A DNA stretch of 64,000 nt. Origin: Alphaproteobacteria bacterium (lineage in GTDB: Bacteria > Pseudomonadota > Alphaproteobacteria > JACZXZ01). Shown piece by piece: positions 9,687-58,566 of this stretch. Location: the NCBI GenBank assembly GCA_052143835.1, contig JBKQRV010000093.1:3135-67134 (forward strand), in the 5' to 3' direction. Both the position numbers and the translations under genes were made by a program. How positions within the stretch are numbered: position 1 is the stretch's first letter; every line of letters starts with the position of its first letter. The notes under the pieces are model-generated. The model had not been told where the DNA came from and made no database searches. It was given only the letters and a program-made list of their open reading frames with translations.

Positions 9687-9963
9687 CCGCGGGAGACGTT
9701 ATGCTGATCGCTCAAGGGGGCGCAAGGGTGCGCGTGGGTCCTCAACGGGCCCGTTCCGAGGCCCGTGAATGTGGCGGCAACCGTTTGCTAACCTCTTCAA
9801 TCTTCGAGTAATTCGATGCGAGCGAGGAGACCCAAATGGGCACCTTCGCGGGAAATTGCGGTATTGATATCGCTCCGGACATCGCTATGATCTCGTCCCA
9901 CGACGGTGGGCAGAAACCAGGGCCTCGGTCATCCGATCGGCCCGCAGAGGAGAAATCTCGATC

Positions 9964-12040: not shown

Positions 12041-12088
12041 AACCGACGCCGTCCCTGCCGCGGCAGCCTGAGGAGACGAAGGATCGCC

Positions 12089-14307: not shown

Positions 14308-14311
14308 GGCG

Positions 14312-14968: not shown

Positions 14969-15010
14969 CGGTTTGCGCCGACAACGACAAAGAGCGGCGA
15001 GAGGGAAATC

Positions 15011-16462: not shown

Positions 16463-16484
16463 AAGGAGCGGGCCGGATTTGAGG

Positions 16485-17645: not shown

Positions 17646-17790
17646 GCCGGGTCTGCGAGAACGTGCGCAACAGGCGGCAACCAGCGGAAGCCGAGGCCGG
17701 CCCTCGCGCGAGCGGAGAATTGCGGCGGGGCCGCGCGCGCGGCCGGCGGCCGGCGTCTCGACGAGGCACCTTGGTCGACAGGCATCGCCC

Positions 17791-19035: not shown

Positions 19036-19536
19036 ACGAGGTCCGAGGTGGGCGAGGGGAATGCATGTTCGTTGGAGATCACCATGGAGGCGCCGCGACG
19101 GCGCTCTGTCTAACGTACGCTCGCTCGACGCCGCCGAGACGCGTGCCACCCAAGAATTCGCTCGAATTCGTACGTTCTGAACGACGCGCATGAGGTGCTT
19201 GTACCGGCGCACGGCAAGGCCGCGGCGGCTCATCCAGGGCGCGCTCGGCGTCATGCCTGCGTCGCCGCATTGGCCTATCCAGTGAGCCGCGATTGAGCAG
19301 CGCCTTGCGGTCGATCGCGAAACAGTGCATCCTGACATCCACGGCCGCAATCCAACGGAGCATGTCGGTCGACGAGCGCACTGTCGCGAAGTAGCGCTCG
19401 ATGCGAAGCCCCCATGGTCGACCCGCTTGCGTTGGCCTGCCATTCTTGGGCTCGAGGATCAAAGACCGACTTGGCAAGAGCCTTGGCATGCGCGTCGAGA
19501 AGCAGGACGGCTGAGGGATCAAGAGCAATATTGAGA

Positions 19537-21165: not shown

Positions 21166-21315
21166 GGCCCCCACGCGCGAGCGTCCGCATGCCAAAGCTC
21201 GAGAGGTCCTGCGGTGATCGCTGAGCGCCTCGCCGAGCGGAGTAAGGGCGTCGGCGGCGGTGCGATATCCCGAGCGCCGCAGCGCAAGTAGGTCGGGGAC
21301 CGAGCGAAGACAGTG

Positions 21316-25571: not shown

Positions 25572-25794
25572 CAACACGGTCCTCTTGGCCAACCGAGGGG
25601 GAAGAAGCTCGATCTTTGCAGGGTTAGCTGCAGGAATTCGCCGAGAAAATAAGATATGTTTTCATCGCGCGCCTTGTCATCATGAATTATACCGTCGGCT
25701 CGAGGCGTTCAGGACAGCGATAGGGCGCGATTGAGGGCTTGCCTTGGCAGCACTCCGAGGGATATCGGCATGATAAGCGGCGAAAATTAGAACG

Positions 25795-28209: not shown

Positions 28210-28377
28210 GGTGCGGTCGCGGAGCGCTCAATGCGCGGGCGACGTTGTAATCGCCGAAGGCTCACGCGCAAGCCTATATAGGCACGGGCGTCCCTGCTGC
28301 TTCTTGTTCCCCGGCACGCATCCGGCTAGAAGTAGCGACCAACCGCGCTCTTTGGCGCGGACGTCGGAGTGTCTTGG

Positions 28378-31673: not shown

Positions 31674-31779
31674 CATCGCGTCGACCGGCGCGGTGGGCTT
31701 TTCATTTCGTAGCGCCGGCGGCTCGGTCGATATAGTGTCGCTGAGGCTGCGCTCCGCTTGCGCGGGAGACCCCGCTGGA

Positions 31780-34059
31780 ATGACAGATTCGCCGATCATG
31801 GTCGCCGTCGCCCTTGCCTGGATCACCGGTCACTTTGGCCTTTATGTGGCATGCAGGCTTCGTGGCGGCAGCCTTGGCAAGTGGCAGGACGTGCTGAGCT
31901 TCCACCTCGTCTCGGCGGCGGGACTTGGGGCGGTCATTGCCGGCCTGAGCGTGCTCGCGTGGAGCGCCAATGCGGCGATGGCGGCAGCAACAGCGCTGGC
32001 GCTGCACGGCGTCTACAGCTTGGCAATGCTGGAGAGTTGGCCGCTGCTCGAGGCGAGCCTCGCGCTCGCAGGGGCGGAGAGGACGGCGTACCGCGGCGCG
32101 GTCGGCGAGATCACGTTTCTCGACCGCATCGATGGGCTGATGCGCCGATCCGCGCGGCTGCTCGCGATTGCCGCCTTCATCGCCCTCTTCGCAGCAGTCG
32201 CTTGGTATTTGCTGCTGCGCCCGATCTACGCCGCAAGCTTCATCGAATATTATATGAAATATCTGCCCTTCCTGACCGACCACGGGTTGCGGGGCATCCT
32301 CGATCTCGCGGCCCTGGGCGATCCGCGCCCACGCCTCCTTCCCTTGCTCGGTGCCGTCGTCAACGTCGATCTTCGGCGGGCCTTGCTGCTGCTCGGCCCG
32401 ATGCATCCATCGTTCGGCATCGCTTGGCTGATCTATCCCGCAGCTCTCGTAGCTCTCTACTGGGCCGTTTATCTCTTGTGCGGGCGGAGGACGCCGGCGG
32501 TGATCGCGACCCTGCTCTATGCGGCCTCGCCCGGGCACCTCGACATCCTGGTAGACTATTACATACCAGCCAAGCCGCTCGTAAATTTGTTCTTTATCAC
32601 GGCGTTGGTGGGTGTGGGGTTGAGCGAGCCGCACGCCTTGCTGAACAGGCGGCCGCGCCCTTTACTCGGTACGAGCATCCTGTTTCTCTCGGCGCTCGGC
32701 GGCGTGCTTTCGGACGAGACGGCGGTCTTCCTGATCTCAACGGCCGGCATCCTCGCGCTGCCGCGCCTACTCGACCGCAGCGCCGGAGCTGTCCGGAGGC
32801 TGGCGGCGCCGGCCGCACTTGTCGCGGCCCTCTTGATCTATGTCTCGATCGGCTTCTTCGCGTTGCCGGCGATCGCCGAGCGCCACGGGTATGCGGTCGT
32901 CCCCCTCGGCGTCGTCATGTTGCGCGGCGTCTATGCGGCGATGTTCGGCACGGAGCAGCCCCTCGGCGCATTTCTGCACGGCATCCACTCCGGCAGCTTG
33001 CTCGAGACCATCGTGTCGGCGCACACGGTGCTGGGTCGCGCCGTCGTCGGAGATTGGACGTACAATCGCCCGCCGCGACCCTTTTGGGACGCAAGTGCCC
33101 GCGAGTACGGCCAACAGCTCGCGGTCCTCATCGCGTTCGCGGCTCTCCTGTTGTCGGTCAGTCGCGCGCAACGCCGGCTCCTCTGGTCCCTCGTGCTGGC
33201 GTTCGCGTTGTTCGTATACGGGCAGGCGGTGATGATCTATCCGCTTGCTCCCTATTTGGTCGAAGTGAACTATTACGCCGGCCTCTCGTCCATCTTCGTG
33301 GCCCTGCTCGTCGGCCTGCTGCTCGGCGATTTTGCCGAGCGCAAGGGCTGCCTGCCCCTCGCGGGGCTCGCGGCCGCGTGGCTCGCCTTCACCAGCTTCT
33401 CCAACTTCCTCGCCACCGCGCAGCGGCACCCCGGTTTCACCGATGCGCCGTTGACCTGGACGGACCTGCGCGAGGCCCGCGCGCGCGCGCTGGCCGGACA
33501 GCTTCTCGATATGCCGGGAGCGGCCGGCTCTCCCGACGGGCTCCCGCATCGCGGCCGCAAGTACCTTTACGCGCTCGAGGTTGCGATGGCGCGGCAGCAT
33601 GCACGGGGCGAGCGCGTGGACATCCAACCGCTCCAACCGCTCGCGAGCGCTCCCCTTTATCGGAGTCTTCACCTGGAAACCCTGTTCGACACCAAGATTC
33701 CGCGTTTGGCACAGCCCGGTCCCGCCACCCTTGCGGAGGCAAGGGGCAGCGCCGGCGCTACGGCCGCGGCACTCGGCGTGGCGTCGCTACAAGGCCGCCG
33801 TCTCCGCGGCAGCACCGCCGAGTGGAACGTCGACATCACGATTGCGGAGAACGGCGTTGTCCGCGGCACGGTATGGCGCCCCGGCCTCATGCGGCTCTGG
33901 GGCATGACCGGCCGTCTCGCGCGGGGGACGGAAGGCGACTGCCTCGTCTTCGATCAGGCCCCGGCACTTTGTATGGCTACGCTCGTCACGCTCAAGGATG
34001 GCCTCTCCGCGTACGACGCCGGCGGCCGGTGGGTCCTCGCCTTCCACTACGTGCGGTGA
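31780..34059 (+). CDS. Family-A-related large (about 760 aa) polytopic membrane protein with long C-terminal domain
   Basis: PRLLPLLGAVVNVDLRRALLLLGP..PSFGIAWLIYPAALVALYW matches the family-A motif. The ATG at 31780 is in frame with the GTG-initiated track ORF 31693. Confidence 0.5.
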   Translation: MTDSPIMVAVALAWITGHFGLYVACRLRGGSLGKWQDVLSFHLVSAAGLGAVIAGLSVLAWSANAAMAAATALALHGVYSLAMLESWPLLEASLALAGAERTAYRGAVGEITFLDRIDGLMRRSARLLAIAAFIALFAAVAWYLLLRPIYAASFIEYYMKYLPFLTDHGLRGILDLAALGDPRPRLLPLLGAVVNVDLRRALLLLGPMHPSFGIAWLIYPAALVALYWAVYLLCGRRTPAVIATLLYAASPGHLDILVDYYIPAKPLVNLFFITALVGVGLSEPHALLNRRPRPLLGTSILFLSALGGVLSDETAVFLISTAGILALPRLLDRSAGAVRRLAAPAALVAALLIYVSIGFFALPAIAERHGYAVVPLGVVMLRGVYAAMFGTEQPLGAFLHGIHSGSLLETIVSAHTVLGRAVVGDWTYNRPPRPFWDASAREYGQQLAVLIAFAALLLSVSRAQRRLLWSLVLAFALFVYGQAVMIYPLAPYLVEVNYYAGLSSIFVALLVGLLLGDFAERKGCLPLAGLAAAWLAFTSFSNFLATAQRHPGFTDAPLTWTDLREARARALAGQLLDMPGAAGSPDGLPHRGRKYLYALEVAMARQHARGERVDIQPLQPLASAPLYRSLHLETLFDTKIPRLAQPGPATLAEARGSAGATAAALGVASLQGRRLRGSTAEWNVDITIAENGVVRGTVWRPGLMRLWGMTGRLARGTEGDCLVFDQAPALCMATLVTLKDGLSAYDAGGRWVLAFHYVR

Positions 34060-34221
34060 GTCGCGGTAATGAGATCGGGGACCACGAGTGTCCGGCAATG
34101 TCCTGCCCAGCCGCCGCGAACCGGTGCCCGCGTCGCCCAGCCGGGCTTCTAACTCATTGACCCATCGAGTAGGGGGGGCTATACAGGGCGCCTTGTTGGG
34201 AGCCTCGACGGTGCGCGACTA

Positions 34222-35259
34222 ATGCTTGAAAAGAATCTGAACATCAATGACTTGGTGGCCGAAGTCGCGAACGAGGTGCCGCGCACCTACCGCGACCTGC
34301 TAAAGGCCGCGAACTTGTCGCGTGATGAGATCAGCAAGCTCCACGAGATCCGCGACGGACGTGCCTTGCTCGATCTCCTGGGCGCACTGGCGACGGCGGC
34401 GGCGGTCCCTTGGATATATCTGGCCTTTCCCAATCCGCTCACGGCCGTGGTTTGCGTATTGCTGACGATCCACAATTTCAACAGCTTTGCCCAGGTCGTG
34501 CATGGCAGCGATCACGGAAAGTTTCTGAGCAGCGGTCGTTGGAACGACATCTTAGGATCCCTCGGCGCAGCGCTCCTCGGCTTCACCCGCGAAGGCCATG
34601 CGCTCGCGCACCAGATGCACCACCTGGAGCTCAACACCGACGAGGACTCGGATCGAATCTGGGGACGGCCGGAGCAGTCGACGCGGGAGATGCTCGGCAT
34701 GTGGCTCCAAGACATCTTCATGATCTCCGCGGCAAAGCGTCTCCTTCAGTACATGCAGTTCGACCGCAAGACCTTCACCGCGACGCCGTGGCGAGGGCTG
34801 AACCTCGGCTTCTTCAGCGGCAAGATCGGCCGCGTCGTGCCCGTCGTCGCCGTGCAAGTTCTCGTCATCGCCTATTACTCGGCGGTGATCGGCCCGCAGT
34901 TTTACATCTATTTCTACGTGCTGCCGATTCTCACCATTTATCCGGCGCAGATCCGGCTGCGTACGGCCTGCGAGCATTGCTTCGAGGCCGGCTATCGGCC
35001 GCGCAACAGAGGAGAGCGCTGGGTGTCACGCAGCATTCGGGCGAACCTGTTCGAGCGCCTGGTGATCGCGCCGCTGCTCATCCAGTATCATTTCGAGCAC
35101 CACCTGCTGCCCGGCGTGCCCTATTACAATCTGCCGCTGGCGCGCCGAATCCTTGCGAAGAATGGCCTGGAGGTGCCGTTGGCACCCGGCTATTTCGCCT
35201 TCGTCTTCCGCCGCTGGCGCGCCGAGCGGCAGCTCGCGCGCGCTGCCGTGGCCGTCTGA
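34222..35259 (+). CDS. Membrane fatty-acid desaturase family protein
   Basis: Three His boxes (HGSDH, HQMHH, HFEHH) with hydrophobic stretches between them. Confidence 0.75.
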   Translation: MLEKNLNINDLVAEVANEVPRTYRDLLKAANLSRDEISKLHEIRDGRALLDLLGALATAAAVPWIYLAFPNPLTAVVCVLLTIHNFNSFAQVVHGSDHGKFLSSGRWNDILGSLGAALLGFTREGHALAHQMHHLELNTDEDSDRIWGRPEQSTREMLGMWLQDIFMISAAKRLLQYMQFDRKTFTATPWRGLNLGFFSGKIGRVVPVVAVQVLVIAYYSAVIGPQFYIYFYVLPILTIYPAQIRLRTACEHCFEAGYRPRNRGERWVSRSIRANLFERLVIAPLLIQYHFEHHLLPGVPYYNLPLARRILAKNGLEVPLAPGYFAFVFRRWRAERQLARAAVAV

Positions 35260-38873: not shown

Positions 38874-40319
38874 ATGAGCGATGCGCGAGCGGACCTCTTC
38901 GGGCGCAAGCGCACGATCCGTGCGCGGGCCGACCGTCAGGCGGGCGAGCGCCTCGCTTGGATCGCGCGCAACAGCTATTTCTACCGGGAGGACCACCGTT
39001 ACCTGCGCTTCCTGATTCCGCCGGGGATCAAGGTGCTCGAGCTCGGTTGCGGCGTCGGACACAGCTTGGCGGCGGTGGCGCCTGCGCGCGGAGTCGGCGT
39101 CGACTTCAGCGAGGCCACCTTGGCCGTGGCGCGCGAGCGCTATCCCGACTACGAATTTCGTCTCGGCGACGTCGAGGATGCGGTGACGCTCGAGGGATTG
39201 GGCGGACCGTTCGACGTCATCCTGCTCGCCGACACGATTGGTGAGCTCGAGGATTGCCAGACGACCCTTGTCAATCTCCGTCGGGTCGCGACGCCGGATA
39301 CGCGTATCGTCATCTCCTATTACTCGACGATGTGGGAGCCGCTCCTCAAGCTTGGCGTGTGGCTGCGGCAAAAGATGCCGCAGGAGCCGCAGAACTGGCT
39401 TTCGACCGAGGACATCATGGCGCTCCTCGAGCTCGCCGGGTTCGAGGTGGTGAAACGCGAGTGGCGCCAGCTCCTGCCCAAGCGCCTCTTGGGCCTGGGT
39501 CCTTTCGTCAACCGCTATGTCGCGACCCTGCCGCTCATCCGCCGTCTTTGCTTGCGCAATTATGTGGTGGCGCGGCCGCGGCCGACCGGCTCGCGCGAGG
39601 CGCTTTCGGCGAGCGTGATCATCCCTTGCAAGAACGAGCGCGGCAACATCGAGGCCGCGATCCGCCGCCTGCCGCGCTTCGCGGACGACCTCGAGATCAT
39701 CTTCGTCGAGGGCGGCAGCGAGGACGGCACGCGCGCGGAGATCGAGCGCGTGATGGCGCGCTATCCCGAGCGCGACATCCGCTTGTTGGCGCAGGACGGC
39801 AAAGGCAAAGCGGACGCGGTGCGCAAGGGCTTCGCGCACGCCCGCGGCGAGGTCCTCATCATCCTCGATGCCGACCTGACGGTGCCGCCGGAGTGGCTGC
39901 CGCGCTTTTACGAGGCGGTCCGTTCGGGCCGCGGCGAGTTCGTCAACGGCTCGCGCCTGATCTATCCGATGGAGGAGCAGGCGATGCGCTTTCTGAACCT
40001 TGTCGCCAACCGCGTCTTTTCACGGCTCTTCACTTGGCTCTTGAACGAGCGCCTGACCGATACGCTTTGCGGCACCAAGGCGCTTTTGAAGCGCCATTAC
40101 CGGAGGATCGCGGCCGACCGCGCCTACTTCGGCGACTTCGATCCCTTCGGCGACTTCGACCTCATCTTCGGTGCCGCCAAGCTCAACTTGAAGATCGTCG
40201 AAATCCCGGTGCGCTACGCGAGCCGGCGCTACGGCGAGACGCAGATCTCGCGCTTCAGGCACGGCTGGCTGCTGCTCCGCATGGTCATCTTCGCCTTCCG
40301 CAAGCTCAAGGCTTTCTGA
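38874..40319 (+). CDS. Bifunctional fusion: N-terminal class I SAM methyltransferase + C-terminal GT2 glycosyltransferase
   Basis: N-terminal VLELGCGVGHS and FDVILLADTIGELED; C-terminal SVIIPCKNERGNIE, ILDADLTVPPE. AAGGA lies 7 nt before the ATG; the track TTG is at 38844. Confidence 0.75.
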   Translation: MSDARADLFGRKRTIRARADRQAGERLAWIARNSYFYREDHRYLRFLIPPGIKVLELGCGVGHSLAAVAPARGVGVDFSEATLAVARERYPDYEFRLGDVEDAVTLEGLGGPFDVILLADTIGELEDCQTTLVNLRRVATPDTRIVISYYSTMWEPLLKLGVWLRQKMPQEPQNWLSTEDIMALLELAGFEVVKREWRQLLPKRLLGLGPFVNRYVATLPLIRRLCLRNYVVARPRPTGSREALSASVIIPCKNERGNIEAAIRRLPRFADDLEIIFVEGGSEDGTRAEIERVMARYPERDIRLLAQDGKGKADAVRKGFAHARGEVLIILDADLTVPPEWLPRFYEAVRSGRGEFVNGSRLIYPMEEQAMRFLNLVANRVFSRLFTWLLNERLTDTLCGTKALLKRHYRRIAADRAYFGDFDPFGDFDLIFGAAKLNLKIVEIPVRYASRRYGETQISRFRHGWLLLRMVIFAFRKLKAF

Positions 40320-40597: not shown

Positions 40598-42253
40598 TCA
40601 GTAGTTCCCAGGCGCAATGCACGTCTGTTCCGGACAATACCCCTCCAATCGTTGAGGCCAAATGCAGCAGGCGCGCGACGTACAGAGCTTGTGGTCCATC
40701 AGCTCGAACAGCCACACGTCACTCGGAGAAAACGCGGCGCGCAACTTGGTGAGGTCCTCACCCGCCTGCGCCGCCCGCCAGTACTTTACGACTTTCGCCA
40801 GGGTGAGCGTTGCGCCGGGCGTAAACGGCTCGCGCCCGCCGCCCTGCACGTACATTTGGGCGTAGGCAGCTTCATAGCTGTCCATCGCCTCTCGGTTGTC
40901 GCGCAGCAAGTTTGCGCAGGACACCCAGCCGAGATAGCAGGCGGCAAGAATGCAAGCCGCGCGAGCGGCCAGCATGCCGCGAAAGCAGCCGACCGTGATT
41001 CCGATCACGACGACGGAGAAGACCGCTATGAGAGCGCCATAGTAATAGTTGGACTGGTAGCCTCCCCCGATCGGCGCCGTGATCAGACGGGACAACACAA
41101 GACCCTCGTAAATTGCACACAGGACAAGGAGAACTATTGCCCGCGCTAGCCGCCAGCGCAATTGCGCGCTTGCCCGCGCAGCGGCAGCCCCGATGCCGAC
41201 GGCGAACGGAAAAACGCTTGCGGCGGCGGCGGTCCCGACCGACCGCGGCCAGGCAAACTCAAATTTCAAGATGTTCCAAGCCGACGACAGGATCGTGCCG
41301 AGGTCGAGCTGCGCGAGCAGAGGCGACACCCACGGAGTCGCTCGCGACCCAAGATTGAACGTCCAGCCCCAGAAGTCCATAGTAGGATAGATTCCTTTGG
41401 GCCAATAGTACGTCGTAGCGATTGGAGCGAGCCAAGTGACGAACGCCAAATACAACGCGAACGTGGAGAACAGACAAATCGCCAGAGCGAGGTGCCGACG
41501 TTGGAACAGGGACGGGAACATGATGGGTAGGGCGCCATAGATAACCCAGGCGGTCTCATCGGTACAACAGGTCAGGAGCAGCGCCATATAGAGGACCACG
41601 GCCTTGGTCGAGTATGCGCGCCAATCGCCGGACTGCCAAATCTTCGCCGCCAAATATAGGCAGAAAATGACGAACGAATTAGCGAACGCCTTTGCTGGAA
41701 TCGTCATCATGAGAATGGGCGAAAGAAAGCCCTCCGAGAGCGCATAGAGTCCGACGGCCAGCCGTGCCGCCATTCTGTCCCGCGTAAGGGCGAAGACGGT
41801 GCGGTGAAGAAAATACAACGAGATGAGCGAGAAGAACCATGTCAAAGACAGACTTGGATGCGGCGGCAGATATCCGGCAAGCCAGACGCGGAACATCTGA
41901 TCCAAATGAAAAAAAAGGTACGCTAGAAACCGCCCTCGCCCGCAATCGCTGTTCAAGCAATCAAAGAAGTAACGACCCAACTGGTGCCAATTGAGCGGCG
42001 CGGACCTCAGCGTGATCGCTCCACGCAGCGAGAGCCAGCCGACCGTCGCGGGCCTCAACGGCTGCGATGCGCTGAATATGATTTCGTGTCTTATTCTCCA
42101 TTGCGGGATAAAGTTGAAGACATCGGGCCTCATCCAATTGATGCCGTAGTCCGTCAGGAAGCATGCAAGAAGCGAGAGCGATGCTGCGAGAAATAGCAGC
42201 GCCGACCAATTTTCCAGGGACCTTGCTCTGGAGAAAGCCCGTCCCGCACTCAT
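40598..42253 (-). CDS. Family-A polytopic membrane protein, paralog (D subgroup)
   Basis: GRGRFLAYLFFHLDQMFRVWLAGYLPPHPSLSLTWFFSLISLYFLHR. ATG at 42253. Confidence 0.5.
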   Translation of the reverse strand: MSAGRAFSRARSLENWSALLFLAASLSLLACFLTDYGINWMRPDVFNFIPQWRIRHEIIFSASQPLRPATVGWLSLRGAITLRSAPLNWHQLGRYFFDCLNSDCGRGRFLAYLFFHLDQMFRVWLAGYLPPHPSLSLTWFFSLISLYFLHRTVFALTRDRMAARLAVGLYALSEGFLSPILMMTIPAKAFANSFVIFCLYLAAKIWQSGDWRAYSTKAVVLYMALLLTCCTDETAWVIYGALPIMFPSLFQRRHLALAICLFSTFALYLAFVTWLAPIATTYYWPKGIYPTMDFWGWTFNLGSRATPWVSPLLAQLDLGTILSSAWNILKFEFAWPRSVGTAAAASVFPFAVGIGAAAARASAQLRWRLARAIVLLVLCAIYEGLVLSRLITAPIGGGYQSNYYYGALIAVFSVVVIGITVGCFRGMLAARAACILAACYLGWVSCANLLRDNREAMDSYEAAYAQMYVQGGGREPFTPGATLTLAKVVKYWRAAQAGEDLTKLRAAFSPSDVWLFELMDHKLCTSRACCIWPQRLEGYCPEQTCIAPGNY

Positions 42254-44063: not shown

Positions 44064-45311
44064 ATGAAAACATCTTCAGTCTATCGTGAAATCTCGGTGT
44101 GCCGGATTTGTGGAACCAAAAACCTCGAAAGTATCCTCGACCTCGGAGTGCAGGCGCTTGCCAGCCGCTTTCCCCGTAAGGGCGAGCCGGACCCTCCGCA
44201 AGCGCCGCTCGTGCTGGTGCGGTGCACGCATTGCGGACTCGTCCAACTGCTCCATTCGGTGACGCCAGGAGAACTTTATACCCCCGGTTATGGCTACAAG
44301 TCCGGCGGCAATACCACGATGCAGGCACATCTGGCCGGATTGGCCCGTTGGGTCGAGGAACGCTGCCCGCTAAAGACAGGCGATATTATCGTCGACATCG
44401 GGTCCAACGATGGTACCTTGCTCAAGTCCTTTGCCACCCCTGGCCTCCGGCGGATCGGCATAGATCCGATCGCCGGCAAGTTCCGTGACCAGTACCCCAA
44501 TGACGTGCAGCTCCACGAAAGCTTCTTCTCGGCTGAGACCTACCGCATTGTAAGCGGTGGCGGGAAGGCTAAGGTCGCAACCTCGATCGCCATGTTCTAC
44601 GACCTGGAATCTCCCATGGATTTCGTCGCCGCCGTGAAGGCAGCGCTGCTCCCCGATGGAATATGGGTGTTGGAACAGAGCTATCTGCCAACCATGCTCG
44701 AAGCCAACGCCTTTGACACCATTTGCCATGAGCATTTGGAATACTACGCCTTGCGCCAGATCGAGTATCTAGCCGATACTTCTGGTATGCGTGTCTTTGA
44801 CGTCGAGTTGAATTCATGCAACGGCGGCAGCTTCCGTCTAGCGGTCTGCCAACGGGATGCACCCCACGCCACGCGGGAGGATCGCATCGGGCGGTTGCGC
44901 AAGCTCGAAGGAAAGTTGAAGCTGGATACCCGAGCCCCGTACGACGCCTTCAAGCGGCGGATCGACAAAGTTTGCGAAAAACTGCGGACGTTCGTAGCGG
45001 CCGAGCGTAGAGCCGGCAAGACCTTCTATCTCTATGGCGCCTCCACGAAGGGAAATACGCTCCTCCAATATTGCAAGCTGGATGCGAGCAAAATCGTCGC
45101 TGCGGCGGAGCGTAACCCGGAGAAATGGGGCTGCCGTACGCCGCTGACCGGCATCCCAATTCATTCCGAGGAGGAATGCCGCGCTGCTAGGCCCGATTAT
45201 TTCCTGGTCCTTCCCTGGCATTTTCGTAATGAGTTCGTCGAACGCGAAGCCGAGTTCTTGAGATCCGGCGGCAAGCTCGTCTTTCCTTTGCCCGATTTGG
45301 AAATCGTCTAG
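44064..45311 (+). CDS. Sugar C-methyltransferase (TylCIII/NovU-type, zinc-binding N-domain + MTase + C-terminal domain)
   Basis: CRICGTKNL..CTHCGLVQL zinc knuckle; IVDIGSNDGTLL; CHEHLEYY; C-terminal FYLYGASTKGNTLLQY. Start taken at MKTSSVY; track start 43965. Confidence 0.7.
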   Translation: MKTSSVYREISVCRICGTKNLESILDLGVQALASRFPRKGEPDPPQAPLVLVRCTHCGLVQLLHSVTPGELYTPGYGYKSGGNTTMQAHLAGLARWVEERCPLKTGDIIVDIGSNDGTLLKSFATPGLRRIGIDPIAGKFRDQYPNDVQLHESFFSAETYRIVSGGGKAKVATSIAMFYDLESPMDFVAAVKAALLPDGIWVLEQSYLPTMLEANAFDTICHEHLEYYALRQIEYLADTSGMRVFDVELNSCNGGSFRLAVCQRDAPHATREDRIGRLRKLEGKLKLDTRAPYDAFKRRIDKVCEKLRTFVAAERRAGKTFYLYGASTKGNTLLQYCKLDASKIVAAAERNPEKWGCRTPLTGIPIHSEEECRAARPDYFLVLPWHFRNEFVEREAEFLRSGGKLVFPLPDLEIV

Positions 45312-45313
45312 GA

Positions 45314-46273
45314 ATGGGTACCGCACCTCGGGCTCTCGTCATCGGCGCTGCGGGCCAGGATGGTTCCTACCTCTGCGAGCAGTTGAGGGCGGACGGCCTG
45401 CAAGTCTTCGGCCTGACTCGCCAGGGGCTGAGCGGCCCCGACGGGGCCGAACGGCAGTCGGTCGCCCTATCTGACCGCACTGCCATGGCAGGGCTGATCG
45501 CGAACGGCGGCTTCGATCAAATCTATTACCTCGCCGCCTACCACCATTCGTCCGAAGACCGCCTCGACGCGGAAACCGACATTGTGCGGCGCAGTCTTGC
45601 GGTGCACGTGGACGGGTTGGTCAACGTTCTCGACGCCCTGGTTGCCATCCGGTCGCGCGCGGCACTGTTTTACGCCGCCTCTTCTCATGTCTTCGGCGTC
45701 GTCACGGAAGAGCCTCAGACCGAGCGAACGCCGCTGGCACCGGTCTGCGCCTACGGCATCTCCAAAGCCGCCGGCGTCCAACTCTGTCAATTCTACCGCC
45801 ACGACCAAGGCTTACGCGCCAGTGTCGGGTTCTTGTTCAACCATGAATCGCCGCGGCGGCCCCTGCGTTTCCTTTCGCGCAAGGTCGCCCGCGCCGCCGT
45901 CGAGATACGGCGCGGATTGCGCCGTCAGGTGCGCCTGGGCGACCTTGCGGCGCGCGCAGACTGGGGCTATAGCCCGGAATATACCGACGCCATGCGCCGC
46001 ATCCTTGCTCTCGAAGAAGCCGGCGACTTCGTCATCGCCTCTGGCCGCGGGGCTGCCGTCCGCGATTTCGTCGCGGCCGCCTTCGCCCGGGTCGGATTGG
46101 ACTGGCGCGAGCATGTGGTGATCGATCCGTCGCTGGTTCAGAAGGTCAACCGCGGGTCCCTGGTTGGGAATCCCGCAAAAATCGCGCGGGCAACGGGATG
46201 GTCTGCGCGCACCACTTTGGAGGAATTGGCGGCTCTCATGGTGGATGCGGAATACGCCGCTGTCGAGGCCTGA
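45314..46273 (+). CDS. GDP-mannose 4,6-dehydratase-family NAD(P)-dependent SDR (Rmd-like; catalytic Glu not conserved)
   Basis: ALVIGAAGQDGSYLCEQL; FLFNHESPRRP (GMD-family signature); YGISK (YxxxK). The position aligned to the GMD S/T-S-E triad reads SSH. Confidence 0.7.
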   Translation: MGTAPRALVIGAAGQDGSYLCEQLRADGLQVFGLTRQGLSGPDGAERQSVALSDRTAMAGLIANGGFDQIYYLAAYHHSSEDRLDAETDIVRRSLAVHVDGLVNVLDALVAIRSRAALFYAASSHVFGVVTEEPQTERTPLAPVCAYGISKAAGVQLCQFYRHDQGLRASVGFLFNHESPRRPLRFLSRKVARAAVEIRRGLRRQVRLGDLAARADWGYSPEYTDAMRRILALEEAGDFVIASGRGAAVRDFVAAAFARVGLDWREHVVIDPSLVQKVNRGSLVGNPAKIARATGWSARTTLEELAALMVDAEYAAVEA

Positions 46274-47805
46274 TGCGCGACCAAATCCGAACCCTCGTGA
46301 TGATCCCCACATACAACGAAGCAGAGAACGTCGAACTCATCGTCACCGAGATCCGCGCCACAGGCCTCGACCTCGACCTCCTTTTCGTCGACGACAATTC
46401 GCCCGATGGCACCGGCGCCATTCTCGACCGCTTGGCCGCCGAATACCCGCGTCTCAAAGTCCTGCATCGATCCGGGAAGCAGGGCATCGGTTCGGCCCAT
46501 ATGGCGGGCGTCCGTTGGGCCTACGAGCACGGATATACGAGGCTGGTGACCATGGATTCGGATTTCAGCCACTCGCCATCCGATATCGGGCGTCTATTGT
46601 CGGCCGGCGACGACGTCGACGTGGTGGTTGGCTCGCGCTTCATCGGTCCCCACAGCCTCGATGGCTGGGCGTGGAATCGGAGGCTGTTGACCCATCTCGG
46701 CCATTTCCTCACCACCATCTTCCTCGATCTGCCGCTAGACTGCACCAACGCCTTCCGCTCGTATCGACTCGATCGCATTTCTGCCGGCATTTTCGAGATG
46801 GTGGGGTCGAGAGGCTATTCATTTTTCTATGAATCGCTGCACCGGCTGAATGTCAATGGAGTGAGGATTTCACAAATCGCGATCGACTTGCCGCCGCGCA
46901 CCTACGGCCATTCCAAGATGAAGCTCAAGGACATCCTGCAGAGCGTCCGGTTCTTGTGGCGCCTGGGCTGGCGCACCCGGCTCAATCGCGCTTCCTTGAT
47001 TTACGTGGCGCCGTTCGACGGCGTCGACACCGGCGATAAAGCCCAGGCGGCTTGGGAATCCTATTGGAGCGGCGCGGGGCACGAGGGCAAGTGGCTCTAC
47101 GACTTGGTCGCCGCCATCTACCGGCGTTTTATCATCCGCCCAGCGGTTACCCATTTCCTGAGCAACACCTTCGGCACGGGCGCCAAATTGCTCCACGCCG
47201 GCTGCGGCACCGGCGTGGTGGACATCGGCGCCTACGATCGCTTCAACATCACCGCCTTCGATATTTCGCCGCGAGCGCTTACCGAATACGCCCGCCATCA
47301 CGCGGGGCGAGCGGTGCTCCTGCAGGGTAGCGTGTTCGCGATTCCCGCCGAGCCAGGAAGCTACGACGGTGTCTTCAATCTCGGTGTCATGGAACATTAT
47401 ACCGAGGAGGAGATCGCTCGCATCCTCAGCGAATTCCGCCGCGTGCTGAAGCCTGGCGGCCGAATTGTTCTGTTCTGGCCGCCGGTCTATGGGCTTGCGA
47501 CCCAGGCGCTGAAGCTCATCCATTATGTGCTGAGGCGGATCATGAAGAGGGATATCGCGCTGCACCCGCCGGAACCGACGCAGGTGAGGTCGCGCCGGCA
47601 GATCGAAGACTATTTGGGCGCGACGGGCTTTAAATTGGAAGTTTATTATTTCGGGATTCGCGACATGTTTACCCATCGCATAATCAGTGCGGTGCGCTCT
47701 GGCGAGGAGACATCCGCCGCGACGAGGAGCCGGCCGCCCACGGCGTCGACGCGCGGGAGTAGAGCCAGCGATGAGGAGTCTGGCGCGGCCGTCAAATCTC
47801 GTTGA
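46273..47805 (+). CDS. Bifunctional fusion: N-terminal GT2 polyprenyl-phosphate sugar synthase-like domain + C-terminal class I SAM methyltransferase
   Basis: N-terminal VMIPTYNEAENV, LFVDDNSPDGT, VTMDSDFSHSP; C-terminal LHAGCGTGVV, VFNLGVMEHY, LKPGGRIVL. The ATG overlaps the upstream stop (TGATG). Confidence 0.75.
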   Translation: MRDQIRTLVMIPTYNEAENVELIVTEIRATGLDLDLLFVDDNSPDGTGAILDRLAAEYPRLKVLHRSGKQGIGSAHMAGVRWAYEHGYTRLVTMDSDFSHSPSDIGRLLSAGDDVDVVVGSRFIGPHSLDGWAWNRRLLTHLGHFLTTIFLDLPLDCTNAFRSYRLDRISAGIFEMVGSRGYSFFYESLHRLNVNGVRISQIAIDLPPRTYGHSKMKLKDILQSVRFLWRLGWRTRLNRASLIYVAPFDGVDTGDKAQAAWESYWSGAGHEGKWLYDLVAAIYRRFIIRPAVTHFLSNTFGTGAKLLHAGCGTGVVDIGAYDRFNITAFDISPRALTEYARHHAGRAVLLQGSVFAIPAEPGSYDGVFNLGVMEHYTEEEIARILSEFRRVLKPGGRIVLFWPPVYGLATQALKLIHYVLRRIMKRDIALHPPEPTQVRSRRQIEDYLGATGFKLEVYYFGIRDMFTHRIISAVRSGEETSAATRSRPPTASTRGSRASDEESGAAVKSR

Positions 47806-48037: not shown

Positions 48038-49525
48038 ATGTTTGATGGAAGGGCGCAAGGTGCGCGGTCCCGAACCTCGCGGCTCGAGCTTTACGTGGCC
48101 GCGCTTTTTTGCTTCGCATCCCTGGTCGTCGTCGCGCTTTGCGTGACGGACTACAGCATCACCTGGATGCACCCGGAAGTGTTCCTCGCGGAACGCAAGC
48201 ACGTGCTGGCTTTGACCGAGCTTCATTGGCGCGACGTCGCGCGCTTTTTCGATTGCGAGGCATTATCGGACATCTGCGCGGAGGCGCGTTTTCTCTCGTA
48301 CTTGACGGGCTATGTGAATTCCTTCTTCCGCCTGTGGCTCGTCCAATATATTCCGCCGCACCCCAGCATCAGCATAACGTGGCTGCTGTCGTTCGCCTCG
48401 CTTTATTTCTTCTACCGCGCGATCGTCCTGCTCACGGATGATCCACCCGCCGCCCTGCTCGGCACGGGGCTGTACGCGCTCTCCGCCGGTTACCTCTCCT
48501 CGCTGCTCATGCTCTTCAATCCCGCCAAGGCGCTGGCCGGCTTCTTCGTCAATTTCTGCCTGTTCCAGGCGACGCGGATCCGGCGCGCGCCCGACCACAG
48601 GGCTTGGTCCGCCGCGGCGGTCATCTTGTATCTTTCGCTCTTCCTCGCCTACTGCTCGGATCAGAGCTGCTGGTTCCTGTGCGGGGGCATCCCCGTTCTG
48701 TTGGTGGAATGGCAGCAGCGCCGCGACTGGCCGTTCCTCGCGTGCGTCGTCGCGACGTTCCCGCTCTTCCTGGCGTTCGTGACTTGGGCGGCACCGGTGA
48801 TCGTGAGATCGCTTTGGGGTTATACGGATTTCGAGTTCTGGAGTTATGTGTTCAATGTCGGCCGAGCGGCCAAGGGGGTGCCGTTCCTGGACCGGCTGAA
48901 CGTGCGGACGCTTGGCGCCATCGCGTACAACATGCTGCATAGCGAGTTCACATGGTGGCGCTCGGGATCGACGGTCGCCGCCCTCAGTCTATTGCCCTTG
49001 GCCGCGGCCATCCTCGCCGCTGCCGGCCTTGCGGGCCGGCAGATGCGGCTGCTTCTTGCCCGGACCGTGCTCCTGTTCGCGCTCTTTACCTGCTACGAGA
49101 GCCTCCTCCTGACTCGTCATTTCGTCGAGGCCGGCACTTTTTACTATGGCGCGCTCTTCCCGAATTTCGCGCTTCTCATGGTCGCCGTCGCGATCAGCTG
49201 CCTGCGCGGCGTCCGCACCGCCCGCGCCGTGGCCTGCTTGGCGGCGATCTATCTCGGCTACATCTCCTTCACTTGGTGCATGTCCTTCAACCGCTATTGG
49301 ATGGGCGTACACGACCGTTTGTACGCGAGGACGGACTTGGTCCCGGAGGACTATGGCCCGCTCACCCTCGGGGCACCTTTGAGCGAGGCCAAGGTCGCCG
49401 CCTACTGGCGGGCCGCGCGGACCGGCGATGACTTTCGCCGCCTGCGGCCGTCGTTCGCGCCCAGGGACATGTGGCTCTTCGAGGAGCTGGACGCCTGGCG
49501 CCGGCGGCAGGGGCTCGATCGCTAA
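48038..49525 (+). CDS. Family-A polytopic membrane protein, paralog (D subgroup)
   Basis: AEARFLSYLTGYVNSFFRLWLVQYIPPHPSISITWLLSFASLYFFYR. ATG at 48038. Confidence 0.5.
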   Translation: MFDGRAQGARSRTSRLELYVAALFCFASLVVVALCVTDYSITWMHPEVFLAERKHVLALTELHWRDVARFFDCEALSDICAEARFLSYLTGYVNSFFRLWLVQYIPPHPSISITWLLSFASLYFFYRAIVLLTDDPPAALLGTGLYALSAGYLSSLLMLFNPAKALAGFFVNFCLFQATRIRRAPDHRAWSAAAVILYLSLFLAYCSDQSCWFLCGGIPVLLVEWQQRRDWPFLACVVATFPLFLAFVTWAAPVIVRSLWGYTDFEFWSYVFNVGRAAKGVPFLDRLNVRTLGAIAYNMLHSEFTWWRSGSTVAALSLLPLAAAILAAAGLAGRQMRLLLARTVLLFALFTCYESLLLTRHFVEAGTFYYGALFPNFALLMVAVAISCLRGVRTARAVACLAAIYLGYISFTWCMSFNRYWMGVHDRLYARTDLVPEDYGPLTLGAPLSEAKVAAYWRAARTGDDFRRLRPSFAPRDMWLFEELDAWRRRQGLDR

Positions 49526-49646: not shown

Positions 49647-51185
49647 TCAATGGTCCACCGCGCGCAGATGGCTGATGTAACGCAGCTCGCACACGAGATA
49701 GAGGGCGCCCACGGGTATGGGCGCCTCCCGCAGGCGCTCCTCGAGGCGGCCCTGTCGCCACGCGGTCCAAAGCTCCTCGAGGATCGCATGACTGACCGGC
49801 AGCTTTTCGTCGACCGCGACGGCGTTGCCCATCTCATGGGGAACGAGGCCATTTGTTTTCAAGGACAGGAGGTTCGTCGCCTCGGCCACACCTTGCTGTG
49901 CGACGGCCGTATTGTGGATCTGCATGGCGACGATCAGGGCGGTCGCGACGACAAAGGCGACGCGCAGCCCCGCGCGCTCCCGACGGATCGCTGCGAACCA
50001 GATGCCGAGCATGAGCGCAAACAGGACAGCGAAGACCGAGCCGTAATAAAAACCGTACGCCCATCCGCCGTGGCGGCCCTGGACCGCGGCGAAAAATATC
50101 AGGAATGCCGCCATCGTGATGCCGCACCGCGCCGTCAATCTGCGGCGGGCCGGGCTCAAACAGCCGCGGCAGAGCGCGAGTGCCGCCAGCCCAAGGACGA
50201 AAAGCGGCACGCATATGATGTATGTCGCGAGCTCCGACGACGGCGCGCCCAGATCGGCTCCGGCAAAAAGCTGAAATACGTTCTTGGTCTCGAGCGGAAC
50301 GATAGCGCTTCCGAAGAGGGCCAGAAAGTTGAGCGCGAGCGTGCGCAACGAAAACATGCCGAACGGCCCCGTGGTCCCCTTGCTGTTCAAGATGGCGCCC
50401 ATATAGTCGAAATGATAATGAAAATAATGCTCGGTGATCATCGGCGCGAAGACGATGGCGAAGAGGAAAAACGCGGCAAGGGGTAGCGCCAGAATGGCGA
50501 GGTTGACCGCGGCGGCACTCGTGCCCCGCGCTGTCCATGCAGGCGGCAGGAAACGGCCCGGGAACAGCAAAACCAGCAAGGGATAGGCGAAGAGAGGCAT
50601 CTCGTCGAGGAAGGGCCCGAAAAAGAGGAGCACCAGCAGGGCATATTTCCGCCATCTCGGTATGAAGAACAAAAAAGTCCCGGGAGCTGCCTGACGATCG
50701 AGTCCGGAGGCCAGGAAGAGGGCGACGATGTACACCACATTGGACAAGGCTTTTCCTGACGCCAAGCCGAAGGTGAATCCCGAGAGGAAGCCGACCGACG
50801 AGAGATAAACGGCCAGCGTAAGCCAGGCGGCTTGCTTGTCTCGCGTGACGTTCTGCATGAGTCTGTAAAGGCAATAAGGCCCCAAGATGAGTTGAAATAG
50901 CCATGACAGCGAAAGGGTTGGCGGTATGACGAAATAGTCGTAGAGAAAATATCGCAAGTGAAAATCAAGCAGCGCCACGAAATACATCAGAAATCTTGGC
51001 CTGTTGCCATCCGGATCTCCAAAGTTATAAAACATGTTCAAGAGATCTCCCCACCTCAGGGGAAGATGCCCCTGCATCAGGCCCAGGGCGTCGGCGATGT
51101 AAAATTGCGGGTCGACGGCGGCGTTTTCGTAGCCGGATAAATAAAACAGGGCAAAAATCGCGGCCACGATGGAGGCAGCGATCAT
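49647..51185 (-). CDS. Family-A polytopic membrane protein, paralog
   Basis: NRPRFLMYFVALLDFHLRYFLYDYFVIPPTLSLSWLFQLILGPYCLYR. First ATG at 51185; track TTG at 51227. Confidence 0.5.
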   Translation of the reverse strand: MIAASIVAAIFALFYLSGYENAAVDPQFYIADALGLMQGHLPLRWGDLLNMFYNFGDPDGNRPRFLMYFVALLDFHLRYFLYDYFVIPPTLSLSWLFQLILGPYCLYRLMQNVTRDKQAAWLTLAVYLSSVGFLSGFTFGLASGKALSNVVYIVALFLASGLDRQAAPGTFLFFIPRWRKYALLVLLFFGPFLDEMPLFAYPLLVLLFPGRFLPPAWTARGTSAAAVNLAILALPLAAFFLFAIVFAPMITEHYFHYHFDYMGAILNSKGTTGPFGMFSLRTLALNFLALFGSAIVPLETKNVFQLFAGADLGAPSSELATYIICVPLFVLGLAALALCRGCLSPARRRLTARCGITMAAFLIFFAAVQGRHGGWAYGFYYGSVFAVLFALMLGIWFAAIRRERAGLRVAFVVATALIVAMQIHNTAVAQQGVAEATNLLSLKTNGLVPHEMGNAVAVDEKLPVSHAILEELWTAWRQGRLEERLREAPIPVGALYLVCELRYISHLRAVDH

Positions 51186-51644
51186 CGCCCCTATGAATCC
51201 GTCCTGATGGTCTCGTATGCCCTGCAATATCGAATCCCACCTGGCATCCGCGCAATATGCCGACGCTTGGCCGAATCTACGCGCCCTTGGCCGCAGGCGC
51301 CAGGGTCGCGATGTCCAAGGTCACGAGGAGATAGTTTCTGGACGAAGCTGCCGCGTTCTCGCCTTCTTCACCCCAGCGACCGGTGCGCTCGAGCTACTCC
51401 CCGTACGGGCGCGAAAGGGCCAAGTCGGCCATTAGAGAATGGTGCGCGCCGCGCCCGGCGCCGGAAGCCTTGCGGAAGGCGCCTTTAGGCTTCCGCGTAT
51501 CCCAGCCGAATGTTATCTTTCTTGGTCATTTGGGGACTGTCGGCAGAATGGCTTCGCCGTTCGTCGCAAGACGGCGACTGGCGGACCAGCGGCGGGTGAC
51601 GTCGGGCGCCGAGGTGCGGCGATTCGCGTGAGGGGACGAGCGCA

Positions 51645-57555: not shown

Positions 57556-58566
57556 ATGAGTGATCTTGGAAGCCGCCGCGAGAGGGACGTTCGGCCGCCG
57601 GGCGGCCTAGCGACGGCCGGTCGTGGACGCACGCGGACGCCCACCCCCGCATCGGACACGCCAAGATGCAGCGTCTGCGGCTGCAGCGAGCGCGTGCCCG
57701 TGTTCCATGCCCGCGATTACGAGCACGGCGTGCCTGGCGAATGGCTGGTCGTTCGCTGTCCCCGATGCAATCTCATGTTCCTCTCGCCGATGCCGGCGGA
57801 CGAGGAGCTGGCTTCATTTTACCCTTCGAATTACTCGGCCTATCAAAGCGGTTCGCCGTTGGCCTGGTTGTTTCGTAGCGTCTATCGACTCGACGCGCGG
57901 CGCATTCGGCGGCTCATCGGCGAGCGCGGCCGCATTCTCGACGTCGGCTGCGGCAACGGCGATGCGCTTCTCCAGATCGGGCCGTACGGAAAGTGGGACC
58001 TCTGCGGCGTCGAGCTGAACGGTGCGGCGGTCGAGAAGGCCAGGAGTGCCGGTGTTTCGGTCCAGCAAGGTGACCTCGCCAGCTGCAATTTTCCGGATGC
58101 GAGCATGCGGCTCATCCGCATGGGGCACGTCATCGAGCACGTGCCCCGGCCGGCCGACACCTTGCGGCGTGCCTATGCGTTGCTGGAGCCGGGGGGCGTG
58201 CTCTATGGCGAGACGCCGAGCACGGATTGCCTCGATTTTCGTTTGTTCGGCAAATACTGGGGGGCTCTCCACGTCCCGCGCCACCTTTTTTTCTTCGACG
58301 GGCGCAATCTGAGGCGCGCGTTGGAGCAGGCCGGCTTCGTCGACGTGTCGATCGCGCCGCGGCTGAGGACGGTCGGTTGGTCGTGCGGCGTGCAAAATTA
58401 CCTGGCCGACCGCGCCGGCCTGCGCATACCGGAAGCGGGCCGCGTGCGCTGGTATCTACTTCTCATCATTTGTTTTCTTCCGCTCACGCTCCTGCAGTCG
58501 CTATCCGGCAAGACGGCGACCGTCGCGTTCACGGCGCGCAAACCCGGCGGCGTGGGCCGTCGATGA
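57556..58566 (+). CDS. Zinc-ribbon + class I SAM methyltransferase
   Basis: CSVCGCSE..CPRCNLMF; ILDVGCGNGD; IRMGHVIEHVPRP; LEPGGVLY. Confidence 0.7.
   Translation: MSDLGSRRERDVRPPGGLATAGRGRTRTPTPASDTPRCSVCGCSERVPVFHARDYEHGVPGEWLVVRCPRCNLMFLSPMPADEELASFYPSNYSAYQSGSPLAWLFRSVYRLDARRIRRLIGERGRILDVGCGNGDALLQIGPYGKWDLCGVELNGAAVEKARSAGVSVQQGDLASCNFPDASMRLIRMGHVIEHVPRPADTLRRAYALLEPGGVLYGETPSTDCLDFRLFGKYWGALHVPRHLFFFDGRNLRRALEQAGFVDVSIAPRLRTVGWSCGVQNYLADRAGLRIPEAGRVRWYLLLIICFLPLTLLQSLSGKTATVAFTARKPGGVGRR

Follow-up and report, generated by a model that had tools for sequence, protein, structure and literature searches.

A glutamate-less paralog of GDP-mannose 4,6-dehydratase in a predicted cassette for a lipid-linked, C-methyl-branched 6-deoxyhexose

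We analyzed a 64-kb stretch of alphaproteobacterial DNA (64,000 nucleotides; hereafter, the window), focusing on three adjoining genes that encode, in order, a sugar C-methyltransferase (C-MT), an extended short-chain dehydrogenase/reductase (SDR) related to the 4,6-dehydratase of GDP-mannose (GMD), and a family 2 glycosyltransferase (GT2) fused to an S-adenosylmethionine (SAM) methyltransferase (Table 1). The window has a G+C content of about 62%, and its sequence recurs without a difference within a metagenome contig (ENA ERZ25039587, contig_77105; locus L001); those close homologs with a named source belong to Alphaproteobacteria-type metagenome-assembled genomes (MAGs) and to Vineibacter terrae. 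The three genes are tightly packed. The TAG stop of the C-MT gene (45309-45311) is followed by GA and then by the ATG of the SDR gene at 45314, a 2-nt gap, and the TGA stop of the SDR gene (46271-46273) overlaps by 1 nt the in-frame ATG of the GT2 gene (46273-46275; TGATG). The genes, their order, the 2-nt spacing, and the stop/start overlap are all as an initial annotation of this DNA had described them.

An SDR of the GMD family without the dehydratase glutamate

The SDR is a paralog of GMD. Beyond its Pfam match (Table 1), it scored 177.7 bits against TIGR01472, the equivalog model for GMD (EC 4.2.1.47), below the cut-off of 415. In HMMER comparisons with solved structures, it matched the GMD of Pseudomonas aeruginosa (1rpn) at 5.4e-54 (187 bits) and two solved examples of RMD, the reductase of the GDP-D-rhamnose pathway, at 4.2e-21 (2pk3; 79 bits) and 4.8e-17 (6x3b; 65 bits). 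An AlphaFold2 (AF2) model of the protein had a pLDDT of 92.6, and a Foldseek search of the PDB with it returned GMD at every rank from 1 to 31 (TM-scores of 0.84 to 0.88), followed by RMD.

The catalytic residues of GMD are T126, E128, Y150, and K154 (PMC3539893); E128 of the P. aeruginosa enzyme corresponds to E157 of the human one. The SDR retains the FNHESPRR motif of the family (residues 175-182), Y147-xxx-K151, and the G11-x-x-G14-x-x-G17 motif. In the HMMER alignment, its AASSHVFG stands opposite ASTSEMFG of 1rpn, placing H125 at the position of the catalytic Glu, and a separate MAFFT alignment with the Escherichia coli GMD and others gave the same register.

Loss of the acidic residue extends well beyond this one protein. 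Position 125 was neither Glu nor Asp in any of the 120 best homologs (88 His, 15 Arg, 13 Leu, 2 Gln, and 1 Tyr). An exhaustive HMMER search of 1.8 billion representatives of 50%-identity clusters gave 1475 matches at E <= 1e-30; the best 150 were scored, and 139 of them were non-acidic here. The clade shows no variation at S123, Y147, K151, N176-H-E-S, or the glycine motif (G14-x-x-G17). In contrast, [ST]-[SGA]-E was found in 77 of 80 GMD-family genes at genome loci among the matches listed. This genome set came from a contig search with the SDR alignment; it consists mostly of true GMDs (34 to 44% identity), without the close relatives of the SDR, and was reused below as a Glu-containing control. 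The two alignments and the clade-wide conservation led us to reject the possibility that a Glu is present and had been misaligned by eye.

Besides FNHESPRR and YxxxK, the initial annotation had noted S-S-H in place of the catalytic T-S-E and had taken this to suggest an enzyme that is not a dehydratase. The motifs themselves are as it described, and the change from Glu to His is genuine. The Thr-to-Ser change at the first position of the motif is not diagnostic, since Ser also occurs there in real GMDs (our genome set; PMC3539893).

Other changes mark the clade as well. Following strand 2, the SDR has TRQGL and a 7- to 14-residue gap where three aligned GMDs have RRASSFNTERVDHIY or a similar sequence, so that the RRSSxFN "RR loop" known from GMD structures is deleted. 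A clade-specific HHSSED insertion (residues 78-83; nt 45545-45562) is the only stretch of the model with a pLDDT below 50. RDWG is changed to A/VDWG, and the C-terminal FRPxEV, common to GMD and RMD, is replaced by VQKVNR. The insertion and the lost FRPxEV may mark an altered substrate pocket.

Solved RMDs are acidic at the position in question ("gsseeyg" in 2pk3 and "ssgdvyg" in 6x3b, in an alignment that included the L061 protein). That protein, from Ureibacillus and encoded next to a GMD, is a clear ortholog of RMD 2pk3 (9.4e-98); other RMD-like genes adjoining GMD read S-A-E, S-G-E, or S-A-D. In a neighbor-joining tree of 158 sequences (without support values), the Glu-less proteins grouped into one clade of 36 tips, none of them acidic here, with the protein of locus L004 (T-S-H) as its sister; 84 true GMDs came next, and 19 RMD-like proteins fell outside. 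As placed by these comparisons, the SDR clade is a monophyletic group of its own, sister to GMD and separate from RMD.

Because the Ser-Tyr-Lys triad and the NADP(H) motif are kept and the dehydrating Glu is lost, we read the SDR as a reductase. Judged by these residues, it is almost certainly unable to act as a dehydratase and is best regarded as a putative C4-ketoreductase. GMDs with intrinsic 4-reductase activity have been reported (PMC3539893); an enzyme with such a side activity would be left as a reductase once the dehydrating Glu was lost. Originally, the enzyme had been suggested to be a reductase or epimerase of the Rmd type. The comparative evidence favors the 4-ketoreductase role but not the family label: RMDs keep Glu or Asp, the protein scores higher against GMD than against RMD, and its clade is sister to GMD.

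Partner enzymes and recurrence of the cassette

The C-MT has the three-domain architecture of zinc-binding (PF08421, 4.3e-17), SAM-binding (PF13489, 3.8e-09), and C-terminal (PF08484, 5.5e-46) domains. Among solved structures, it matched MtmC (4rv9) at 1.6e-63 and TcaB9 at 2.6e-47, both over their full length, and it aligned end to end with MtmC, TcaB9, and KijD1 (4rv9, 3ndi, and 5t64 are all full-length matches). The Cys4 zinc site (C13, C16, C54, and C57) and H222-E223-H224 were invariant in 25 relatives, with "chehleyy" of the C-MT opposite "ydehfflf" of TcaB9 and "yhehlsyi" of MtmC. The E-H dyad is aligned with the "DEH" of TcaB9, for which a catalytic role is known from the TcaB9 mutant structures (4e2w-4e33). 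On the strength of the full-length MtmC and TcaB9 matches and of the conserved Cys4 site and E-H dyad, the protein is, by homology, a genuine sugar C-methyltransferase, of the TylCIII type first assigned to it; the same domains, structures, and invariant residues rule out a non-sugar methyltransferase. An alternative in-frame ATG at 43965, with GGAG 7 nt upstream, would add 33 residues, and gene callers do place the start differently on different contigs, giving 415 or 448 aa. Homologs do not share the extension, their conservation beginning only near 44064, and we have kept the latter as a start that is still uncertain.

In the fusion protein, Pfam places PF00535 at residues 9-147 and Methyltransf_11/25 at residues 307-400, bearing out the GT2-methyltransferase fusion of the initial annotation. 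The N-terminal part (about residues 5-250; nt 46285-47022) resembles dolichyl-phosphate mannose synthase (DPMS), and the C-terminal 200 or so residues contain a SAM methyltransferase of class I (about residues 292-455; nt 47146-47637). Among solved structures, the GT2 best matched the Pyrococcus DPMS (PfDPMS, 5mlz; 1.3e-21 over residues 5-250). The equivalents of PTYNE, VDD, D-x-D, R117, R131, S135 (Thr here), and R202 all aligned, with MDSDFSH of the GT2 opposite 89-DADLQH-94. Arg117, Arg131, and Ser135 of PfDPMS bind the acceptor phosphate of dolichyl phosphate (PMC5526996). The best NCBIfam match was PpgS, at 45 bits (cut-off 370). Retention of the acceptor-phosphate residues supports assigning the GT2 to the type of dolichyl- or polyprenyl-phosphate sugar synthases. 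Elsewhere in the window, 38874-40319 encodes a fusion in the reverse order, with the SAM methyltransferase preceding the GT2, and the methyltransferase-GT2 order is also found near the cassette of a Tepidisphaeraceae locus, L086; at least ten methyltransferase domains are encoded in the window as a whole.

The order C-MT, SDR, GT2 was found in seven of seven contexts, namely, the window and all six homolog contigs (48 to 77% identity), which include Magnetococcus and Tepidisphaeraceae MAGs; five of the six homolog contexts carry the fused methyltransferase on the GT2. In the control set, none of the 77 Glu-bearing loci had an adjacent C-MT. In the three Glu-less loci of that set, a C-MT lies directly upstream in Methanoregula (L005) and Planctomycetaceae (L017), and a DPMS-like GT2 lies directly downstream in L004. 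A survey from the C-MT side covered 80 metagenome loci, 57 of them assessable for the gene downstream. Directly downstream was a Glu-less SDR in 22, an acidic member of the family in 7 (4 of them true GMDs), a GT2 without an SDR in 4, and neither in 24. Natural fusions join the same partners: P0288 (751 aa) consists of a C-MT and a Glu-less SDR, and P0346 and P0389 each consist of a Glu-less SDR and a GT2. These three fusions argue for functional links between C-MT and SDR and between SDR and GT2. What had appeared to be a non-canonical combination, a C-methylase of a type normally using dTDP sugars beside a member of a GDP-sugar family, is instead a recurrent, conserved module, found even as one fused protein, in which the C-MT clade itself appears to be GDP linked (see below).

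Downstream of the fusion gene, after a 232-nt gap, lies the gene for a polytopic membrane protein. The protein matched neither Pfam nor NCBIfam, and a search of 5.8 billion proteins yielded only 17 homologs. Its AF2 model (pLDDT 87.8, pTM 0.90) gave 21 top Foldseek matches in the PDB that were all of the GT-C fold (STT3, ArnT, AftB, PglB, PimE, ALG3, Pmt4, and DPY19), although these matches were weak (E of about 1e-3; TM-scores of 0.46/0.36). GT-C glycosyltransferases use polyprenyl-phosphate-linked donors. We propose, from the model, that this protein may be a GT-C glycosyltransferase that works at the membrane's outer face with a polyprenyl-phosphate sugar as its donor. In relatives of the cassette, GT87 genes (in L086, two of them immediately upstream) or a GtrA-family gene are found alongside. 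A relation of the downstream protein itself to GT87/PimE was considered and rejected (hhalign probability of 0.2).

On the other side, the Methyltransf_23 gene ends 205 nt before the C-MT start. Relatives also have an additional methyltransferase immediately upstream of the C-MT, and the protein here may be an accessory (O-)methyltransferase forming one unit with the C-MT, SDR, and GT2. Promoter and terminator signals were sought to define the limits of the operon; none rose above shuffled expectation.

Table 1. Coordinates of the cassette genes and of related features in the window
Feature	Position	Strand	Basis
SAM methyltransferase (Methyltransf_23) with N-terminal Cys-rich segment	42915-43859	+	Pfam PF13489 4.6e-33; gene also called on L001
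C-methyltransferase (C-MT) of the TylCIII/TcaB9/MtmC type, predicted to act on NDP-4-keto-hexose, 415 aa	44064-45311	+	PF08421 + PF13489 + PF08484; 4rv9, TcaB9
Extended SDR, GMD paralog without dehydratase Glu	45314-46273	+	PF16363 8.4e-62; S123-S124-H125; Y147; K151; N176-HESPRR
GT2 + SAM methyltransferase fusion, 510 aa	46273-47805	+	PF00535 5.6e-24; Methyltransf_11 1.5e-15
Polytopic membrane protein of 495 aa with some 7 or more transmembrane helices, predicted GT-C fold	48038-49525	+	AF2 model, Foldseek
Six related polytopic membrane proteins	19336-21165, 28336-30015, 31651-34059, 40598-42253(-), 48038-49525, 49647-51227(-)		21-59% identity; 7-11 predicted transmembrane helices; no Pfam match

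Nucleotide donor, proposed pathway, and alternatives

It had been suggested that a nearby rmlA or manC homolog would identify the nucleotide-sugar donor. Neither is found in the window; the related locus L004 has manC and gmd. There, a Glu-less SDR is encoded in a row, on one strand, with a DPMS-like GT2, a guanylyltransferase of the ManC type, and a true GMD (500 bits). Across the 80 C-MT loci, a true GMD was present in 21, ten times as often as RmlB, which was present in 2. GMD adjoins the relatives in L004, in L005, and in 8 of the 22 metagenome loci with a Glu-less SDR. It precedes the C-MT and SDR in L112, L115, L154, and L161, follows C-MT, SDR, and GT2-methyltransferase in L102, and is divergent from the C-MT and SDR in L005 (PF16363, 461 bits), as it also is in L097. 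In the Methanoregula locus L005 (2820-8439), what looks like a separate 6-deoxyhexose pathway lies beside the true GMD, with genes for an NTP_transferase (260 aa), two SDRs (353 and 316 aa) on either side of a small protein resembling RmlC, and a GT2.

From this gene context, the C-MT lineage appears to be GDP linked. The GMD and RmlB counts and the L004 operon suggest that the substrate is GDP-4-keto-6-deoxymannose and that the SDR has the task of reducing C4. One could instead suppose the same chemistry on a dTDP- or CDP-4-keto-6-deoxyhexose, or methylation at C5 as for NovU, with the GMD-like fold serving as a generic 4-ketoreductase. All biochemically characterized relatives of the C-MT do use dTDP sugars (PDB names; PMC3539893), FRPxEV, a segment common to GMD and RMD, is not kept in the SDR clade, and the two loci with RmlB (L097 and L115) have RmlA as well. 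However, in both of those loci, a true GMD is nearer to the pair than RmlA and RmlB are. The excess of GMD over RmlB near the C-MT clade, the ManC and GMD genes within the L004 operon, the best structural matches of the SDR, which are all GDP-sugar enzymes, and the resemblance of the GT2 to a DPMS, which uses GDP-mannose, likewise speak for GDP, and we regard the switch of nucleotide or of methylated carbon as unlikely.

We consider it probable that the three coupled genes work together as a cassette producing a C-methyl-branched 6-deoxyhexose, built on GDP and then linked to a lipid. We imagine that a true GMD encoded beyond the window would convert GDP-mannose to GDP-4-keto-6-deoxy-D-mannose. 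The 4-keto group would then allow a C3 enolate to form, to which the C-MT would add the methyl group of SAM; C3 is the likeliest site by analogy, and C5 is possible. The SDR, having lost the Glu for 5,6-elimination, would use NADPH to reduce C4, giving GDP-6-deoxy-3-C-methyl-hexose, that is, D-evalose (3-C-methyl-D-rhamnose) or its talo epimer. The DPMS-like GT2 would transfer the C-methyl sugar to polyprenyl phosphate, and the fused methyltransferase domain, the upstream methyltransferase, or both might add an O-methyl group. After flipping, the GT-C-fold protein, possibly together with its paralogs in the island, would attach the sugar to a cell-envelope glycan; the DPMS-like GT2, the GT-C fold, and the GT87 and GtrA genes of relatives fit such a sequence of loading on polyprenyl phosphate, flipping, and GT-C transfer. 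The order of reactions and the lipid carrier put forward in the initial annotation are thus upheld, as predictions, by the comparative evidence. Of the candidate products, 3-C-methyl-D-rhamnose is known from Azorhizobium caulinodans and Phyllobacterium trifolii, as part of their O-polysaccharides; Burkholderia andropogonis has a 3-C-methylrhamnose. Our literature searches for a characterized GDP-sugar C-methyltransferase, or for the genetics of 3-C-methyl sugars or evalose, found only an in silico proposal for Coxiella and papers on GDP-mannose, and they found no biochemical characterization of the C-MT/SDR pair.

Several observations weigh against this proposal. The RR-loop deletion, the HHSSED insertion, and the RDWG and FRPxEV changes set the SDR apart from both GMD and RMD, and may touch on the substrate or the nucleotide. 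The tree that defines the clade lacks support values, though its topology is in line with the bit scores. The GT2 has Ser in place of Gln93, a metal ligand in PfDPMS, and no transmembrane segments are predicted in the fusion protein, whose C-terminus is taken up by the methyltransferase where type III DPMS has a transmembrane domain. No homolog of GMD, ManC, RmlA-D, or Fcl is encoded in the 64-kb window, including in Pfam scans of the remaining window genes, and none was found within ±10 kb in several close relatives. Finally, C-MT and GT2 genes abut without an SDR in at least four related loci (L088, L111, L114, and L123), and in L162, a GT2 lies downstream of the C-MT, about 640 nt away, also without an SDR; in L088 (10001-12146), no SDR was found within ±10 kb. 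The SDR is thus not universally required.

Cassettes without an SDR may, by analogy, rely on a ketoreductase activity of the C-MT like that reported for MtmC. This raises the question of whether, even where it is present, the SDR is dead or serves as a scaffold or chaperone while the C-MT itself carries out the 4-ketoreduction. MtmC, with its reported 4-ketoreductase activity, is the best solved match of the C-MT, and residue 125 of the SDR varies among H, R, L, Q, and Y, as a non-catalytic position might. Such variation does not extend to the redox residues: GxxGxxG, R36, S123, Y147, and K151, together with NHES, are invariant across the clade. The confident GMD-like model and conservation over at least 139 clusters at 50% identity likewise argue for an active enzyme, and a dead SDR seems to us very unlikely.

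The lack of a dehydratase gene suggests another possibility, that of a self-contained route in which the Glu-less SDR would oxidize C4 of GDP-mannose with tightly bound NADP+, the C-MT would methylate the keto sugar, and the SDR would reduce it again, yielding GDP-3-C-methyl-D-mannose with no need for GMD. The SDR is nearer to GMD, which performs a C4 oxidation, than to RMD, and tight translational coupling and the C-MT/SDR fusion would suit the handing over of an intermediate. DPMS-type enzymes normally take a mannose-configured GDP sugar with O6 (PMC5526996), and 3-C-methyl-D-mannose occurs naturally, in the D1/D3/D6 O-antigen of Helicobacter pylori. If this route operates, the cassette would be self-sufficient and would explain the biosynthesis of an H. 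pylori-type branched mannose as a polyprenyl-phosphate-linked donor. However, a true GMD adjoins the pair in L005, L097, L102, L112, L115, L117, L125, L138, L154, and L161, and the joining of a Glu-less SDR with ManC and GMD in L004 would be pointless if the SDR used GDP-mannose. There are few precedents for an NADPH-holding enzyme that lets go of a keto intermediate and captures it again. The missing dehydratase itself says little, since other keto-sugar enzymes of the window (two DegT proteins and an E1 pair that we take to be AviB-like; see below) also lack a local one. All in all, we find the self-contained route quite unlikely. For the GMD-dependent pathway that we prefer, the absence of a local GMD means that the supply of the 4-keto-6-deoxy substrate is assumed for this window.

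The surrounding glycan island and known systems

The protein of predicted GT-C fold has five paralogs within the window (Table 1), and the island seems, with one member modeled as GT-C, to hold a private expansion of a rare glycosyltransferase family. Two of these genes belong to a duplicated two-gene block (19336-22938 and 28336-31673) that has kept its order, with 19336-21165 and 28336-30015 sharing 59% identity and 21292-22938 and 29964-31673 sharing 57%. Other paralog pairs are 25777-28209 and 58074-60857 (40%; the latter with a weak YfhO match) and 16422-17645 and 17515-19035 (51%).

Another set of genes, at 9868-16462, appears devoted to a different unusual sugar. It encodes an E1 dehydrogenase alpha subunit (PF00676) and a transketolase-like beta subunit, followed by two pyridoxal phosphate (PLP) enzymes of the DegT/EryC1 type, a PIG-L deacetylase, and an MBOAT acyltransferase. 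The E1 pair resembles AviB1/AviB2, to which the addition of a two-carbon branch in avilamycin is attributed. These enzymes, too, need a keto-sugar, and no dehydratase is encoded in the window. The island also has a fatty-acid desaturase family gene (34153-35259) and a gene for an LPG_synthase_TM family membrane protein (5992-7056), the latter near a GT2 gene (3642-4793).

Members of the SDR clade are named "GDP-mannose 4,6-dehydratase" in JGI and NCBI records, despite the missing dehydration residue. Recognizing a large, Glu-less sister clade of GMD would correct many annotations and the metabolic reconstructions built on them. The C-MT/SDR pair is a candidate for making 3-C-methyl-D-rhamnose and related O-antigen sugars of rhizobia and plant pathogens. 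That the pair is coupled to a DPMS-like enzyme and to a rare family of putative GT-C fold suggests a route by which branched deoxysugars may be delivered as polyprenyl-phosphate monosaccharides for extracytoplasmic glycosylation; to our knowledge, a donor of this type has not been described before. The clade also offers an example for enzyme evolution, in which a dehydratase that lost one catalytic residue and had its loops remodeled would have become a dedicated reductase.

The predicted chemistry is known, and what is new is, as far as these comparisons go, a previously unrecognized and misannotated sister clade of GMD. The closest parallel for the reductase is the GDP-D-rhamnose pathway, in which GMD and RMD act in succession (P. 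aeruginosa and Aneurinibacillus thermoaerophilus; 1rpn, 2pk3, and 6x3b). There, as in our proposal, a GDP-linked 4-keto-6-deoxymannose intermediate is reduced at C4, and the enzyme is an extended SDR that has a Ser/Thr-Tyr-Lys triad. The SDR of the window shares the GMD fold and NHESPRR, and its relatives adjoin a true GMD. It differs in that the reductase is not an RMD and has His where RMD has Glu or Asp, and in that C-methylation would be inserted before the reduction.

For the methylation, the dTDP-L-mycarose and D-tetronitrose pathways (TylCIII, EryBIII, TcaB9, KijD1, and MtmC; TylCIV) provide the model. The C-MT shares their domains, zinc site, and E-H dyad, and they, too, methylate beside a 4-keto group and then reduce it. 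Here, however, the context is GDP rather than dTDP, the reductase is a GMD paralog rather than of the TylCIV/RmlD type, and the predicted acceptor is a polyprenyl-phosphate carrier rather than a natural-product aglycone.

The in silico GDP route proposed for virenose in Coxiella burnetii comes nearest to the combination as a whole: gmd (CBU_0689), a GMER-like gene (CBU_0688), and a C-methyltransferase gene (CBU_0691) (PMC3539893, PMC3204966). It likewise brings together, in a lipopolysaccharide locus, GMD, a C-3 methyltransferase resembling TylCIII, and a 4-reductase working on a GDP sugar, and the methylation and reduction are in silico assignments there too. Its reductase candidate, however, is an epimerase-reductase of the Fcl/GMER type, and the route as described includes neither a DPMS-like GT2 nor a GT-C partner.

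The later steps recall three-component periplasmic glycosylation, in which polyprenyl-phosphate GT2 enzymes (DPMS/Ppm1, GtrB, ArnC, and PpgS) are paired with GT-C enzymes (PimE/GT87, ArnT, and AftB). The cassette shares with these systems a GT2 of the polyprenyl-phosphate type, the conserved phosphate residues, and, encoded next to it, a membrane protein of predicted GT-C fold. It departs from them in a GT2 without transmembrane segments and with a fused SAM methyltransferase, in a predicted C-methyl 6-deoxyhexose donor, and in a rare family of putative GT-C fold, without a Pfam model, as the likely partner.

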